Shown piece by piece: positions 6,187 to 51,107 of a DNA stretch of 64,000 bases. Every line of letters starts with the position of its first letter. Position 1 is the stretch's first letter. The DNA comes from a virus. The notes beneath the pieces were generated by a model. The model saw only the letters and a list, made by a program, of their open reading frames with translations, had not been told where the DNA came from and searched no databases. The stretch lies in the IMG/VR virus record IMGVR_UViG_3300022690_002678. The stretch is one strand, 5' to 3'. Both the position numbers and the translations under genes were made by a program.

Positions 6187-6272
6187 GTCAGGGTCGCCAA
6201 GCATGGTAAGGCGTGTGTTTGATAAACACTTGTTGTACCCTCAACTCATGGGTTCAAATCCCATCCCTGACG
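6187..6272 (+). tRNA. Type II tRNA with Ser-like body and GAT (Ile) anticodon
   Basis: Acceptor GTCAGGG/CCCTGAC, G73; D arm GCC-AAGCATGGTAA-GGC; loop TTGATAA (GAT 6221-6223); long variable arm GTTG/CAAC; T arm ATGGG-TTCAAAT-CCCAT. Confidence 0.8.
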
Positions 6273-6341: not shown

Positions 6342-6449
6342 TTGCCACCTGAATTAAACGAATCACTGAACATGTATAATTATACAAAATCATTTCTAAA
6401 AGAGGACAAGTCTTTCCAAAAAAACTGGAAGAAACTATTCAAAAAATAA
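6342..6449 (+). CDS. 35-aa peptide predicted from promoter spacing
   Basis: TTG exactly 32 nt after ATACCTTTAA at 6310; MPPELNESLNMYNYTKSFLKEDKSFQKNWKKLFKK. Confidence 0.4.
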   Translation: MPPELNESLNMYNYTKSFLKEDKSFQKNWKKLFKK

Positions 6450-6704
6450 CCTAATTTTCTTTTTTAAATTTTCTATATCTTCAGGATAAATGTTTTCAAT
6501 CTCTTCTCCCATCTCTTTTCTTATTCTTCCATAAACTGAAATTGCATTTAGTGTATTATCTAATAGAGCATTAAGAATTTTTTCTTTAGAGTGCTCATCA
6601 ATTGCGCATACAAGTTCATCATGTGCAATTTTTGCGCCCTCTACAATTTCTCTATACAACAACCATAATCGTTTCACTTTTTCATTATCATCCATAACAA
6701 ACAA
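6435..6704 (-). CDS. Hypothetical protein
   Basis: 89-aa helical ORF in an otherwise unoccupied gap. Confidence 0.55.
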   Translation of the reverse strand: MFVMDDNEKVKRLWLLYREIVEGAKIAHDELVCAIDEHSKEKILNALLDNTLNAISVYGRIRKEMGEEIENIYPEDIENLKKKIRLFFE

Positions 6705-25179: not shown

Positions 25180-25686
25180 TTGGCAGGCAACACCGCGATA
25201 TGGCGCGCCACTACAACTCAAGGTGCAACAGAAGCAGCAGCACTTGCTGTAAACATAATTGAATTCAACTCTAGTCCTGTAATTGCAACTGGAAGTTATG
25301 TGTTTAACACTGAAGTAAACTATAGAAATTCTACTCCAGAGAATCCAAGAGTTGCAGGACAAATAAACGAAGTGCAAGACATGGGACTGCAAGGAATAGA
25401 CGTTCAGCTAACAGGCCAGCTAAGAGAGACGTCCTCCACTAGTGGCGACTTGAGTAATCTTGTAACGTGGCTCCAAGAAAACAAGACAGAGCAGTCTCTA
25501 TTTCCAAAGGGAATATTTGGTTTGAGAATGGATGACATGCCACAATTCAATGTACAACCAGCCTTAACTTTTGGATATGTCTTGGCTCAGACTCGTGTAA
25601 TTAGAGATGGCGAATACAAACAAAAAGCAGGAGTCGTCATAACATTACGATTCAGTGGAGACCCAACAGGACTAGGTACTCCATAA
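25180..25686 (+). CDS. Putative distal tail protein
   Basis: 168 aa beta pattern; position. Confidence 0.45.
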   Translation: MAGNTAIWRATTTQGATEAAALAVNIIEFNSSPVIATGSYVFNTEVNYRNSTPENPRVAGQINEVQDMGLQGIDVQLTGQLRETSSTSGDLSNLVTWLQENKTEQSLFPKGIFGLRMDDMPQFNVQPALTFGYVLAQTRVIRDGEYKQKAGVVITLRFSGDPTGLGTP

Positions 25687-28538
25687 TGGCTGACATTGGA
25701 AACATTAAAGAATTTTTTGTAACGTGGTATGACCAATCAGATGGTTATACCACAACAGCTGACATTACAGAAGATGTTATAGGAATCTCATTTACTGATA
25801 CTGGTTCAGGACAAGTAAATGAGTGCATCTTAAAACTCACAGGTGCGTTTGGAAATTTCATTACAGATAAGGGAACACCAACTGTAATTGAGCAGTATGA
25901 CAGATTCCAAGTTGAAGCAGAAGACTTGGTTGGAAATAGCTATAACCGATTCTTTGAGTTTAATCCGCTAGTCATTCCATCGCAAACAAAAACAGAGGGA
26001 ACTCTCTTGGAGCTTAATCTTATTGGCATAGAATATCACACGCAACGAATCAACTTTGCAGGAAGATTCTTTTTTGCTGATGCGTTTACTGTTGCACAAG
26101 AGATTGGAACAAGTTATAACGAGAATAGAAACCAAGACCAACAACCAGTTCTTACTGGACACTCTATTGGAGGATACAACCAAACAACAGGAACTGGAAA
26201 TGGCTTTCCAAGCTTTACAGTAAATCACTACGAGTACGGACTGGTAGAGGATTCAGGATACAACAGATGGAACCAGATGCTTGACAAGCTTGGCGGCTCT
26301 GTTGCAGCTGGTGGAGTACTTGATTATTTTGATATTGGCTTTGAGACATCAGCAGTTAATGCAATAGAGATTGCATTGTTTTCGCAAGGAAGCAGATCAA
26401 TTGATCTTAGTGATGATGCATTACTTCCAACATTGATACAGCCAGTTACTGGTGATGAAAATTTTACAGTAAACATTGGCTCAACAGATGTAGGAATTGC
26501 AGCAGCCACTGCAACCCAAGTGGCAGCGTGGGGTTCGCAAACTCACGGCTCACTACCAACAGGCCACTCAAAGTATGCAAGTGGTGTTGACCAGTTTATT
26601 TTCAGACCACAATGGGATGAAAATATTTTCTATCTTCAGGACTCCCTTGTAAAACACATTGACAACAAACACTATGTTGCACTAAATAATATTGAGGGTA
26701 ATCCGCCATTTCCTACTCCTGCTGTTGATACCACAAACTGGAGTCAGATTGACATGTCTGATGAATTTGGCGATGATATCCAGTATTCTGAATGGACTGA
26801 TGATAAAGTAAAAGAATGGGCAAACTGCGGTGCTGATCCAAGTGCAGTAACTCAAAATCAAGAGGTAATCACATCAGTTGGAGCTACAATGTGCGACATT
26901 AACATTGTAGTTTTAGATAATACTGTAGAGGCAAAATTTTTCAGAACATGGGTTGATTTTCGATTAAACACTGCCGCAGGACTTGACATAGATTTGGCTG
27001 CCGATAGATGGGCATACTCTGGAGAAGATAATCAGTTTCCAATTGGTAGGCGAATGCTAGTTGATGGAGATAATGTAGTTGGATTTACAGGAGAGGATAC
27101 TAATGGAATTCCATTTACAAATAACATCTTAGAGTGGAGCGGTGAGGAATGGATTGTAAAGTACAGACCAGCAGATAGCTCAACTGATCTTAATAACATG
27201 CAAGTGATGGTATGGGATGAGTCGCTAATTTATCAGTGGGATAACACTGGAGAGTCATGGGATATAGTTACAGGTGATCTAGCAGTTGATTGCCTACATC
27301 AGTACTCTACAATATCATCAGCTGAATCCTATGATCCAAAGCCTGCTGAAACTGACAATATTACCCATCCCGATGTAACAAAAGACGGCAATACATTTGC
27401 AACAAATGTCTTTTCTGCAATAGAGTTCAAATATGAGATTGGCTCAAACTTTCAAGACAGAACCGATGCAGGCTCTGATACTCCGCTAGGTGACTATTTT
27501 AAAAAAGGCGCATGGGCTGTATGGCGCGTACCATTTTCTCCAAATAACTTTGGTTCACCATCAGTTACCATAGGAAATATTTTTGGAAAAGAGCTAGGAT
27601 CAGAACCAGATGTTGGAATTAATGCATTCCAACCTGCTTTTCTTGACACACAAAACATGACGTGGACTAGCAGAGGAACTAGGGGATTTAATCAAACAGA
27701 AAGCGAAGACTTGGGGCAGCTCCAGGAATTAGTTACAAATATCAAAATTACAAACCAGACAATACTTGATACTAAACTTGACGGAATTACTACTGTTCGA
27801 GTTTGGATGATTGACAGATATGACAATACTGTATTTTATGATGTAGAGATTCCTTTTGTTGATGTATTTTATCCAACAAAGATTCCCTTTTCTTCATTTA
27901 AGATTTACAGGGGACGCAAGCCACGATTCTTTGATCTTACTGGAAATAGCATTGCATCTTTGTTATTGCCACAAGAACTAGAAATTGTAAATAGATTTGC
28001 ATTCAGAGAAATTCAGATAGTTGGCTGGCAGATTCAGGACTTTTATGATGAGTTTGGCAGGTATGCGCCAGACATTACTGGCGATGCACTTGACTTGAAT
28101 ATAAATAATACATCACTTGCAAAACTTTTTGGTGGAACACTAGCTATTACAATTGATGACTTTCATTTTACAAAGCCATTATTAGCTATTGCACGACAAG
28201 ACACAGACAGAAATCTTGAAGCGCAGTTTAGAAAGAGACCACACATTATTACGTTTCAGCAGTTACTAAATGACGCACAGACAGAACTTGAAAAAGAACA
28301 GTTTCAGTTAAAGCAATACCAGATAGAGACTGCTGGCAGTGAATTGTTTTTATTAAAGTTTGGTGATGGATTCTTTTTTGAAAATGATCAGCTAGTTAAT
28401 GATGAGGATGATTCATCTGATCCTGGTGCCAAGAAGATTAAACTTGTTGTGAGACATATTCAGTATAATTTGACGTCGCCTGGTTCAGGAGAGGGCGGAT
28501 TTAGCAGGACGCTCACTTGTGTTAAGCGTTTCGTCTAA
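25686..28538 (+). CDS. Putative tail hub/tip protein
   Basis: 950 aa; C-terminal LKFGDGF...LVVRHIQYNL...FSRTLTC resembles hub-protein ends. Confidence 0.55.
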   Translation: MADIGNIKEFFVTWYDQSDGYTTTADITEDVIGISFTDTGSGQVNECILKLTGAFGNFITDKGTPTVIEQYDRFQVEAEDLVGNSYNRFFEFNPLVIPSQTKTEGTLLELNLIGIEYHTQRINFAGRFFFADAFTVAQEIGTSYNENRNQDQQPVLTGHSIGGYNQTTGTGNGFPSFTVNHYEYGLVEDSGYNRWNQMLDKLGGSVAAGGVLDYFDIGFETSAVNAIEIALFSQGSRSIDLSDDALLPTLIQPVTGDENFTVNIGSTDVGIAAATATQVAAWGSQTHGSLPTGHSKYASGVDQFIFRPQWDENIFYLQDSLVKHIDNKHYVALNNIEGNPPFPTPAVDTTNWSQIDMSDEFGDDIQYSEWTDDKVKEWANCGADPSAVTQNQEVITSVGATMCDINIVVLDNTVEAKFFRTWVDFRLNTAAGLDIDLAADRWAYSGEDNQFPIGRRMLVDGDNVVGFTGEDTNGIPFTNNILEWSGEEWIVKYRPADSSTDLNNMQVMVWDESLIYQWDNTGESWDIVTGDLAVDCLHQYSTISSAESYDPKPAETDNITHPDVTKDGNTFATNVFSAIEFKYEIGSNFQDRTDAGSDTPLGDYFKKGAWAVWRVPFSPNNFGSPSVTIGNIFGKELGSEPDVGINAFQPAFLDTQNMTWTSRGTRGFNQTESEDLGQLQELVTNIKITNQTILDTKLDGITTVRVWMIDRYDNTVFYDVEIPFVDVFYPTKIPFSSFKIYRGRKPRFFDLTGNSIASLLLPQELEIVNRFAFREIQIVGWQIQDFYDEFGRYAPDITGDALDLNINNTSLAKLFGGTLAITIDDFHFTKPLLAIARQDTDRNLEAQFRKRPHIITFQQLLNDAQTELEKEQFQLKQYQIETAGSELFLLKFGDGFFFENDQLVNDEDDSSDPGAKKIKLVVRHIQYNLTSPGSGEGGFSRTLTCVKRFV

Positions 28539-28595
28539 AATATTTAACGTATAAATTATCGAAAAGCTCTAATATTATTTTTTTAGACTAAACTC

Positions 28596-28681
28596 GTTGA
28601 CGTCGCTTAGTGGTATAGCGAGAGATTGAAAATCTATGATCGAGTGCCTCGGTTTCATGGGTTCAAATCCCATCGTCAACG
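28596..28681 (+). tRNA. Type II tRNA with Ser-like body and GAA (Phe) anticodon
   Basis: Acceptor GTTGACG/CGTCAAC, G73; loop TTGAAAA (GAA 28628-28630); long variable arm ATCGAG/CTCGGT; T arm identical to 6187 copy. Confidence 0.8.
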
Positions 28682-28749
28682 GGTAATTATAACAAATTAG
28701 ACTATCCTGTATTTAATAATACCTTAATTGTAAAATCAAAAATTATTAC

Positions 28750-42265: not shown

Positions 42266-42356
42266 TGCCGAGGGTGGGTTTCGAACCCACGACCTCCAGA
42301 TTATGAGTTTTGCCTTTTGGAGATCTGGCACTCTAACCAGGCTGAGCTACCTCGGC
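42266..42356 (-). tRNA. tRNA-Met(CAT), elongator type, with ~16-nt non-canonical intron (about 42308-42323)
   Basis: GCCGAGG/CCTCGGC+A; CCAGA-[intron]-CTCATAA-TCTGG; T arm GTGGG-TTCGAAA-CCCAC. Confidence 0.9.
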
Positions 42357-47390: not shown

Positions 47391-48392
47391 TTGAATAAAC
47401 TGCTAATTACAATTCCAGTTGTTATAGTAGTTATAGTTGGAATTATAATTCTTATGCTATCAGTTGATGTTATCCCAACAGGCTCTACTCATTTTATAAT
47501 ATTATCAACTGAATACGTGAATCTTGCTCCAGGATCTGGCAATGACAACCGTGATACTCTGGCATATCAGATGGTAAGCCATCTAATTGAGAATAACGAG
47601 ACCCATGAAATAACAGATGTTACGGCAATTAGATACGGCGATGATCCTAAAGCGTCTGTTCCTGGCCCAATAATTAAGATTAACCAGTACGATACGGTAT
47701 CACTAACCGTACAAAACGGACTCGATGATGGCTGTGTCTCAGTTCATACCCATGGGTTATCATATGACATTAACAGCGATGGAACCCTCAAAGAGATTAA
47801 CGGAGTTAGTGATCAATGTGCAACAGTTGACAAACCATACTCTTACACATACTATGCAGGAGATGACACAGTAGGATCATGGCCATACCATGATCACACA
47901 TACTGCAATTCAATTCTGCAAAGCGTAACCATATCATCGTGTGATGACTTTAGGGGAGTAACGGGAGCTGAAGAGATTGGACTGTATGGATTGTTTATCG
48001 TAGAAGGTGCTGATGCTGATAATATTATGATGGATTATATATTATACATGGATGGTAATGCAGAATTCCACGGAACCTCAATTAATAACACTTCACAACT
48101 ACAAACTCCTCTTGGTATTAATCCTACTTTGGAAGCTAAAGAAGGAGATAAGGTAAGATTTTCAATTGTTGGTGTTGGCTCTGAATTTCATACTTTTCAT
48201 TTACATGCTAACAAATGGCATTCCCAAGGAACTCTTAATGTTATAGATACAAAGACTATTGGCCCAATGGAAAGACATTCCTTTACAGTTACGGCAGGAG
48301 GATTTGAAAGTGGCAAAGGTGACTGGCAATATCATTGCCATGTATTTTCGCATCTTAGTCAGGGTATGGCTGGGATATTCAGAGTAATTTAA
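47391..48392 (+). CDS. Two-domain multicopper oxidase (small-laccase type B pattern), membrane anchored
   Basis: SVHTHG, WPYHDH (no Cys in domain 1), HTFHLH, WQYHCHVFSHLSQGM. Confidence 0.9.
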   Translation: MNKLLITIPVVIVVIVGIIILMLSVDVIPTGSTHFIILSTEYVNLAPGSGNDNRDTLAYQMVSHLIENNETHEITDVTAIRYGDDPKASVPGPIIKINQYDTVSLTVQNGLDDGCVSVHTHGLSYDINSDGTLKEINGVSDQCATVDKPYSYTYYAGDDTVGSWPYHDHTYCNSILQSVTISSCDDFRGVTGAEEIGLYGLFIVEGADADNIMMDYILYMDGNAEFHGTSINNTSQLQTPLGINPTLEAKEGDKVRFSIVGVGSEFHTFHLHANKWHSQGTLNVIDTKTIGPMERHSFTVTAGGFESGKGDWQYHCHVFSHLSQGMAGIFRVI

Positions 48393-48845: not shown

Positions 48846-48994
48846 AATATTCACTAAAATAGATTATTCAATTTTAAAACATAAAAGATTAAGAACCATT
48901 TTCAGGCTCTTAATCATAATTACCATCGGGTAACCATTTACCGATTAGATTACTAAATCCTTCTAAATAAAAGTATCTTAATGTACCAAAATAA

Positions 48995-49520: not shown

Positions 49521-51107
49521 TTGGAAAATACTCTATATTTTGGTGATAATCTTCCCATAATTCGTGAATTCATAAAAGATGAAACCATTGACTTGATCTA
49601 TCTTGATCCACCATTCAATTCAAAAGCAAACTATAATGTAATTTTCAAAGCACCTAAAGGTGAAGAATCTGCTGCACAAATTACTGCATTTGAGGATACA
49701 TGGCATTGGCATACAGGTGATACTGAATTTGAATTTAATCAGCTAGTCAAAGGAGGAGGTGTAATTGCAGAAGTTATGAAGGGATTGGAATTAGTTGTTG
49801 GTAAAAATGATTTGTTAGCTTATCTTACAATGATGGCAATTAGATTACGAGAATTATATCGTGTTCTAAAAGATACTGGTTCTTTGTATTTGCATTGTGA
49901 TCCAACAGCTAGTCATTATCTGAAAATTATACTTGATGCAATATTTGAGGCTAAAAATTTTAGAAATGAGATTATTTGGAAAAGAACATCTGCACATAAT
50001 GATTCTAAACGATTTGGAAGAATACATGATATTATTCTATTTTATTCAAAAACAGAAAATTATATTTGGAATAAAGTTTTACAACCATATTCTGATGATT
50101 ATGTAAAGAAAAATTATAAATTTTCAGATGAAAAAGGAAATTATGCTTCTGAAAATTTAACAGGAGCTGGTGTTACTCAAGGAAATTCTTCAAAACCTTG
50201 GAAAAATATAGATCCCTCTAAAGTAGGAAGGCATTGGGCAGTTCCGTTAAATAATTCATTACCTGACTGGTTTATTTATCCTAAAAATTGGAAAAATATG
50301 AATTCACTTGATAGATTAGATATACTTCATGAACAACAATTAATAATTTTTCCTAAAAAAAAGAATGGTAAACCACGATTTAAAAAATATTTGAATGAAA
50401 GTTCAGGAAATGGACTACAAGATTTAATTTTGGATATATCCCCACTTTCATCTCATGCTAAAGAACGGATGGGTTATCCTACACAAAAACCAGTAGCCTT
50501 ACTTGAAAGAATAATCAAAGCTTCATCAAGCGAAGGGGATATAGCTTTAGACCCATTTTGTGGTTGTGGAACAGCAATAATTGCAGCTCAAAAACTAAAA
50601 CGAAACTGGATTGGAATTGATGTAACTCATTTGGCAATCCATTTAATGGAAGAAAGAATGAAAAAGGAATTTGCAATAAAACCAAAAGTAATTGGTAATC
50701 CTGCTTCATTTAACGGAGCTGAGAATCTATTCAAAAGAAATCCATTAGATTTTGAACGATGGGCAGTAACTAGAATAGACGGCATACATCCAAACAAAAA
50801 ACAAACAGGAGATCGTGGTATTGATGGGAAAGGATATTTAGGCCCAAATGGAGAATACAAAACTCTAGTTTCAGTCAAAGGTGGCAAACAGCTAAATCCT
50901 GGAATGGTTCGTGATCTTGTAGGTACTGTTACAAGAGAAGAAGCAACATTTGGTGTTTTAATTACAATACATCAACCTACTTCTGGTATGCAAAAAGAAG
51001 CTGTAGTTGCAGGATTGGTTGATATTGGATTATCACATTATCCCAAAATTCAAATTTGGACTATAGCTGATTTTTTTAATGGTAAAAAGCCCAATTTGCC
51101 ATACTGA
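49521..51107 (+). CDS. N6/N4 DNA methyltransferase fused to Mrr-like PD-(D/E)xK domain
   Basis: DLIYLDPPF, LDPFCGCGT; C-terminal GDRGIDG...VSVKGG. Confidence 0.9.
   Translation: MENTLYFGDNLPIIREFIKDETIDLIYLDPPFNSKANYNVIFKAPKGEESAAQITAFEDTWHWHTGDTEFEFNQLVKGGGVIAEVMKGLELVVGKNDLLAYLTMMAIRLRELYRVLKDTGSLYLHCDPTASHYLKIILDAIFEAKNFRNEIIWKRTSAHNDSKRFGRIHDIILFYSKTENYIWNKVLQPYSDDYVKKNYKFSDEKGNYASENLTGAGVTQGNSSKPWKNIDPSKVGRHWAVPLNNSLPDWFIYPKNWKNMNSLDRLDILHEQQLIIFPKKKNGKPRFKKYLNESSGNGLQDLILDISPLSSHAKERMGYPTQKPVALLERIIKASSSEGDIALDPFCGCGTAIIAAQKLKRNWIGIDVTHLAIHLMEERMKKEFAIKPKVIGNPASFNGAENLFKRNPLDFERWAVTRIDGIHPNKKQTGDRGIDGKGYLGPNGEYKTLVSVKGGKQLNPGMVRDLVGTVTREEATFGVLITIHQPTSGMQKEAVVAGLVDIGLSHYPKIQIWTIADFFNGKKPNLPY

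Follow-up and report, generated by a model that had tools for sequence, protein, structure and literature searches.

The stretch analysed here (the window, 64,000 nt) belongs to IMG/VR record IMGVR_UViG_3300022690_002678 and is a portion of a 110-kb contig; it carries head-morphogenesis, virion and integrase genes and is from a head-tail virus whose host is probably a member of the Nitrosopumilaceae (marine ammonia-oxidising archaea). At 28596, 57 nt beyond the end of a probable baseplate hub gene, lies a transfer RNA (tRNA) gene with the body of a serine tRNA and the GAA anticodon of a phenylalanine tRNA (Table 1). Both ARAGORN and Rfam (RF00005, 53.9 bits; cut-off 29) called the gene, its folding energy was better than that of 200/200 shuffled sequences (z −3.06), and a structure scan for the T arm and acceptor returned eight matches in 1.2 Mb of related virus DNA as against none in three shuffles. 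An ARAGORN run allowing introns gave only noise. Parsed as a cloverleaf, the sequence has 7 bp in the acceptor, 5 bp in each of the anticodon and T stems, G18 and G19 in the D arm, and G73 as discriminator. It is a genuine tRNA gene that is under selection, and a variant of a group of class II tRNAs in which body and anticodon do not match. Annotation by anticodon mislabels these genes, hereafter Ser-body genes, as phenylalanine or isoleucine tRNAs.

Table 1. Positions of the tRNA gene, its parts and the other features discussed (window coordinates)
Feature	Position	Strand	Basis or remark
Ser-body tRNA gene, 86 nt, 7/5 cloverleaf, CCA not encoded	28596..28681	+	ARAGORN, Rfam, parse
GAA anticodon, canonical 7-nt loop (U33, A37, A38)	28628..28630	+	
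Anticodon arm with G28·A42 mismatch (A42 = 28636; C in L237 and L359)	28621..28637	+	
Long variable arm, 19 nt, 7 bp counting G44·U; one unpaired base before C48	28638..28656	+	
Discriminator G73, a serine mark (A73 in Phe and Ile)	28681	+	
Invariant 5′ flank; last 4 bases could form pairs with G73 and the three bases after it	28590..28595	+	
Invariant GGT trailer, where CCA must be added	28682..28684	+	
Putative B recognition element/TATA-like stretch, −36 to −22 of the 28596 copy	28557..28574	+	inferred
Second Ser-body family member, GAU anticodon, U27·U43 mismatch; lies behind the head-morphogenesis gene, the site usual for the family	6187..6272	+	
Upstream gene, probable gp27-like baseplate hub	25686..28538	+	weak match
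Virus promoter motif of the next gene	28718..28729	+	26 nt before ATG 28750
Leu-body tRNA (A73, A47c, G47d, U47h), ACC anticodon	48995..49077	−	ARAGORN; archaeal leucyl-tRNA synthetase marks
Putative small RNA (~60 nt) following the Leu-body tRNA gene; its 5′ part has 10 nt (48942-48933) antisense to the anticodon arm of that tRNA, ahead of a terminator-like hairpin	48887..48945	−	

A preliminary description, made from the window alone, had compared this gene with the copy at 6187, and the comparison held in each of its details. The two are equal in length (86 nt), have the same T arm (0/17 differences) and share an identical 7-nt 5′ flank and an identical GGGT, the first G of which is discriminator G73. 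The acceptors differ at 8/14 bases, yet 7/7 pairs are Watson–Crick in the 28596 copy; the variable regions differ (19 nt in the 28596 copy and 17 nt in the 6187 copy), and the GAA anticodon and the G28·A42 mismatch are present as described. The D loop (7 versus 9 nt) and the anticodon stem (6/10) differ as well. With only 62 % overall identity, we rejected the idea that the 28596 gene is a duplicate of the 6187 gene, whereas its closest relative, in the related virus L359, differs at just 3 of 54 core bases; even so, its anticodon is GAU, its acceptor departs at 11/14 bases and its T stem shows two compensatory changes.

Protein-anchored searches found four homologues (L237, L239, L250 and L359), so that the family comprises six distinct copies, about four of them independent; the counts that follow refer to these six. 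Despite up to 11/14 acceptor changes, 100/102 cells of the acceptor, anticodon and T stems are paired, and double changes occur in 18/32 stem pairs (0/500 shuffles, the copies being related). Because the stems covary, the tRNA structure is under selection, as the preliminary description had proposed, and the pseudogene-like random decay that it had set against this proposal is ruled out for the family. Its companion claim, that the anticodon is free, was not supported. The copies hold only GAA (n=4: 28596, L237, L239 and L250) or GAU (n=2: L359 and 6187); U33, G34, A35, A37 and A38 are invariant; and variation touches 2/7 columns of the loop as against 20/24 columns of the acceptor and anticodon stem (Fisher p 0.012, with copies that are not independent). 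This loop is kept across bodies that are just 56–61 % identical, and of the anticodon bases only position 36 toggles, in one case between near-identical bodies (GAA in the 28596 copy, GAU in L359).

In the acceptor stem only the G1-C72 pair is invariant, and in the anticodon stem only G30-C40. Together with G73 and the variable arm, these are the described serine determinants (PMC9976931), and all four marks of archaeal tRNA-Ser are present in 6/6 copies. A serine anticodon is absent (GAA or GAU; a slipped UGA register is impossible in L239 and L250). The archaeal phenylalanine determinants are A73, G20 and C13-G22, with the anticodon as the main determinant for phenylalanyl-tRNA synthetase (PheRS) (PMC9976931), and G37 is typical of archaeal tRNA-Phe (PMC5113207); the 28596 copy has G73, U20, U13·U22, A37 and, in place of the short variable loop of tRNA-Phe, a 19-nt arm. 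What it shares with tRNA-Phe is G34 A35 A36, as do three homologues, although not L359 or 6187. Long-variable-arm tRNAs with Asn, Lys, Thr, Ile and Val anticodons are abundant in unrelated large phages (L024, L049, L108 and L114), and since a long arm by itself is no rarity among phage tRNAs, the case for serine identity rests on the discriminator and the other marks rather than on the arm.

The flanks are also constrained, with six 5′ and three 3′ bases invariant. Four flank pairs could lengthen the acceptor helix to 11 bp, and this pairing is invariant in 6/6 copies (about −6 kcal/mol, pairing probability 0.75–1.0). Across the window, the promoter motif lies 26–27 nt ahead of start codons, many of them TTG or GTG, a spacing that implies leaderless mRNAs and, applied to the 28596 copy, predicts a transcript start between −4 and +1. 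The motif on the 3′ side of the gene, which the preliminary description had linked with it, is real, but belongs to the insertion site or next gene, not to the tRNA, because it stands 26 nt before an ATG and is kept in seven relatives that lack the tRNA. The upstream neighbour, described there as a structural operon, is baseplate-hub-like, albeit by a weak match (Foldseek against T4 gp27-type baseplate hub, E value 8e-4; model predicted local distance difference test (pLDDT) score 61).

Some copies carry changes expected to weaken them. A42 alone lowers the predicted cloverleaf probability of the 28596 copy from 0.98 to 0.15, an effect that is a hint only, as equilibrium folding ignores modifications; A42 could reflect dampening of the tRNA, decay, or an error of sequencing or assembly. 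Including A42, such lesions occur in 3/6 copies, the others being U27·U43 at 6187 and a 5-nt D-loop deletion in L237 (L237:11744-11826) that removes G18 and G19. The copies in L239, L250 and L359 are free of lesions.

All four homologues sit after the head-morphogenesis gene, where 4/19 relatives have a tRNA; at the site after the hub gene, a tRNA was found in 0/17 distinct relatives, the site being empty or holding other cargo. Judged from these comparisons, the tRNA gene is optional cargo, swapped among related viruses. The TATA-like stretch (28557-28574) has a second resemblance: the 15 bases upstream of the 28596 copy read as the final five codons of the head-morphogenesis gene would, suggesting that this copy was probably imported from the head-gene site of another virus, and it looks like an imported, weakened allele. 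L359:11977-12062 and L250:5555-5636 have flanks that are 91 % and 96 % identical around bodies that are 57 % identical, so either the bodies have been swapped or they change much more quickly than the sequence around them. An attachment-site remnant was considered and rejected, as the gene is full length, has its own promoter-like stretch, and empty sites keep no tRNA fragment. Tight DNA-pattern searches recovered only three of the Ser-body homologues already found and none for the Leu-body gene described below, with shorter patterns proving unspecific; relatives picked by gene-end sequence held no additional copies, and annotated phages and plasmids gave no full-length match (best partial hit a phage tRNA-Ser, E value 0.06).

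Three further observations concern these insertion sites. In the hub gene, ten bases (28470-28479, +) repeat tRNA positions 2–11 using rare synonymous codons, a codon combination absent from 15 relatives (p 0.003 uncorrected, one of 40 tests), and microhomology of tRNA insertion is a possible explanation. A small reverse-strand open reading frame (ORF) with no Pfam match is found at the same insertion site whether or not the tRNA is present (window 6435-6704, −; L349:1939-2193; L352:12062-12316). A ParE toxin gene with a small neighbour (L352:9105-9517) is inserted just upstream of the head-morphogenesis operon.

The window encodes a further tRNA, with a leucine-type body and an ACC anticodon, whose homologue in L268 has a different anticodon arm and a GUC anticodon (unit L268:13849-14030, +). 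Each of these Leu-body tRNAs is followed by 10–11 nt able to pair with the anticodon arm of the same gene (p 0.007 each, at the same tRNA positions), with a TATA-like box before it and a shared terminator-like hairpin after it. The predicted duplexes are much stronger for the own pairs (−16.2 and −20.5 kcal/mol) than for the crossed ones (−7.0 and −10.5 kcal/mol), the covariation coming from two examples only. The Leu-body gene and its putative small RNA are a candidate two-RNA toxin–antitoxin or regulatory unit. An antisense unit of this type accompanies both Leu-body genes and none of the six Ser-body copies; a 12-nt complement of the 28596 anticodon arm at 6493-6504 was dismissed, being compatible with chance (0.145), located within an ORF and lacking conservation.

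We favour, with a probability of roughly 0.45, the reading that the Ser-body gene is a virus-borne missense tRNA that is charged with serine, places it at phenylalanine codons and has its output throttled; the steps from transcription onward are those we infer. The tRNA would be transcribed from its own promoter and trimmed, CCA would be added, and host seryl-tRNA synthetase (SerRS) would charge it with serine, to be inserted at Phe (UUY) codons, or at Ile codons by the GAU copies. As miscoding would also harm the virus's own proteins, output would be throttled by leader/trailer pairing that slows RNases P and Z and, in the 28596 copy, also by the A42 mismatch. In the most speculative step, the resulting stress or dormancy of the carrier cell would hinder competing viruses, like other defence cargo in these insertion sites. 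This reading is supported by serine marks that are invariant or kept, by the absence of phenylalanine marks and by a decoding-competent loop limited to GAA and GAU, as well as by the weakening lesions in 3/6 copies and by the ParE toxin gene that occupies a nearby intergenic site in L352. Antisense stretches covarying with the anticodon arm, as seen with the Leu-body genes, are expected if such arms need masking. There is also precedent for such miscoding: human tRNA-Ser-AGA-2-3 G35A, in which the serine tRNA has acquired a Phe anticodon, causes mistranslation in human cells (PMC12993449), while engineered yeast tRNA-Ser(GAA) slows growth by 50 % although a dampening mutation is present (PMC6827378). 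Both combine a serine body with A35, read Phe codons and needed dampening. However, the former is a polymorphism and the latter a construct, whereas the viral genes form a conserved family with covarying stems.

Several points weigh against the missense reading, its weak point being the benefit to the virus. UUY, AUY and GGU codons of the virus align with Phe, Ile and Gly in homologues, so its code is standard; code reassignment was rejected, given that 65/68 conserved UUY columns are Phe and none is Ser. With this code and 4.8 % Phe in its proteins, the virus would itself be harmed by miscoding. The G30-C40 and G1-C72 pairs are frequent in tRNAs of every kind. The lesions could equally be signs of decay or of tuning, the family consists of six copies only, about four of them independent, and the best antisense duplex for any of the six reaches −4 to −9 kcal/mol. 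Pfam scans of most long ORFs in the window gave no match to a dedicated synthetase, and the tRNA cassette contains no ORF. Finally, nematode nev-tRNAs (PMC3333845, PMC4300185), which are likewise conserved class II tRNAs with non-cognate anticodons and a canonical fold, are mischarged in vitro with no detectable mistranslation in vivo (PMC4300185), although they differ in being leucine-charged, eukaryotic and chromosomal.

Some of the same evidence would suit a non-decoding tRNA mimic, the main rival and, with miscoding, one of the two roles that the preliminary description had considered; it is a serious possibility that we nevertheless hold to be on the unlikely side. Here the clamp formed by the flanks would leave an 11-bp closed, unchargeable RNA. 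As a decoy, this RNA would draw off a host enzyme that recognises G34-A35 loops or the class II shape, be it a nuclease that targets tRNAs, a modifying toxin or a synthetase. The four invariant and stable flank pairs fit this idea, as do the inhibition of eukaryotic RNase P by extensive leader/trailer pairing (PMC9705548), a promoter spacing that permits a start at A-4, and the turnover of bodies within near-identical flanks in L359 and L250, which is reminiscent of an arms race. L237 lacks G18 and G19, and the Leu-body homologue in L268 has a non-canonical loop (C33, C38). A decoy would avoid the self-harm of miscoding, and nev-tRNAs illustrate that a tRNA which can be mischarged does not necessarily miscode in vivo (PMC4300185). 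However, covariation is absent from the flank pairs, of which the outer three are often disrupted, and chance alone would produce four pairs at about 0.025; a start at G1, equally compatible with the promoter spacing, would remove the leader. The candidate target enzyme is hypothetical, and a full set of SerRS marks with a decoding-type loop is not obviously needed in a decoy. If the tRNA is unprocessed, it would point to an as yet undescribed defence of ammonia-oxidising archaea that targets tRNAs; if it is serine-charged and used, it would represent deliberate mistranslation encoded by an archaeal virus, with a tRNA as the weapon. The question lends itself to direct tests with natural variants, in which the same body carries GAA or GAU and the stem is intact or mismatched.

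An ordinary or dual-identity tRNA-Phe that gained an extra arm, and would supply a Phe tRNA resistant to host nucleases, is improbable. GAA occurs in 4/6 copies and the anticodon is the main PheRS determinant (PMC9976931), but L359 has the same body with GAU and an unchanged G73, and G73 with the variable arm should draw SerRS anyway. The many long-arm tRNAs of unrelated phages, with their Asn, Lys, Thr, Ile and Val anticodons, are a parallel in being virus-borne and in combining a long variable arm with a class I anticodon. Those inspected in L024, however, retain cognate discriminators, whereas the Ser-body family keeps G73 with both GAA and GAU, and in the 28596 copy U20, A37 and the lack of C13-G22 are equally non-Phe. 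A tRNA-Ser relic without function, decaying at a hot spot of insertion, seems highly improbable for the family; for the 28596 copy alone, the counterpart would be a dead allele or a one-base assembly error. Patchy presence, lesions in half of the copies and the disfavoured 28596 cloverleaf (P 0.15) agree with decay, yet paired stems, a conserved loop and intact copies in L239, L250 and L359 mean that it does not explain the family; as a description of the 28596 copy alone, decay is credible, if unlikely. The dinucleotide-repeat anticodon stem could also slip by two bases, presenting U33-G34-A35 as a UGA serine anticodon, or cause −1 frameshifting. The slipped arm is as stable or more so in 4/6 copies (28596: 0.1 versus 3.4 kcal/mol) and only base 36 of the anticodon varies, but slippage is impossible in L239 and L250 (1 pair versus 5), yields 17/30 pairs as against 28/30 in the standard register and costs the spacer between D arm and anticodon arm, so that we give a disguised serine tRNA of this kind hardly any credence.

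Among known systems, the preliminary description had likened the gene to allo-tRNAs, which are bacterial (PMC5389517), and the likeness is apt for how such a tRNA might work: the long variable arm, G73 (G73 or U73 in allo-tRNAs), a non-serine anticodon and a mobile-element context are shared, and some allo-tRNAs insert Ser at other codons and kill Escherichia coli, while others are inactive (PMC5389517). It fails for the defining fold, which is 8/4 or 9/3 in allo-tRNAs and 7/5 in all six viral copies (C-1:G73 could give 8/5). Allo-tRNAs also have a selenocysteine-tRNA-like long D stem with a tetraloop, whereas the viral family has a 3–4-bp stem and a 7–9-nt loop with G18 and G19, a D-loop tetraloop occurring only in the deleted L237 copy. 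They cover 35 codons, with Phe seen once (PMC5389517), in contrast to the GAA and GAU of this archaeal virus family. Body and anticodon likewise disagree in tRNA-ProX of Streptomyces and Kitasatospora (PMC10365949), a gene family dedicated to mistranslation; it has a proline body and a co-encoded synthetase, ProRSx, whereas no partner synthetase was found in the scanned ORFs of the window, and SerRS-based miscoding, unlike tRNA-ProX, would need no dedicated synthetase. A literature search of partial coverage found no such tRNA reported in an archaeal virus, nor any account of deliberate mistranslation encoded by such a virus with a tRNA as weapon.

A wider reading, which we consider doubtful, would have these viruses hold a kit of locked miscoding tRNAs, with Ser bodies directed to Phe and Ile codons and Leu bodies to Gly and Asp codons. 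The locks would be of RNA only (a leader/trailer clamp or an antisense small RNA), release would poison translation against competing viruses or upon loss of the element, and bodies would be exchanged across the conserved flanks.

The probable host is suggested by a homologue of the head-morphogenesis gene in a Nitrosopumilus metagenome-assembled genome (MAG), and an intron-containing tRNA-Met and a multicopper oxidase in the window fit a host of this family. L330, a distant relative of the virus, is binned in a Pseudomonadales MAG and is probably misbinned. The tRNA-Met(CAU) (42266-42356, −) is an intact archaeal gene with a short intron in the anticodon arm and is probably host-derived. A compact tRNA-like element at 34150-34218 (+) has a 7-bp acceptor and a perfect T arm; it falls below the ARAGORN default, receives no Rfam call and has no homologue among the loci examined. 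The multicopper oxidase has two domains (47391-48392), and the gene at 49521-51107 encodes a fusion of a DNA methylase with an Mrr-like nuclease domain.
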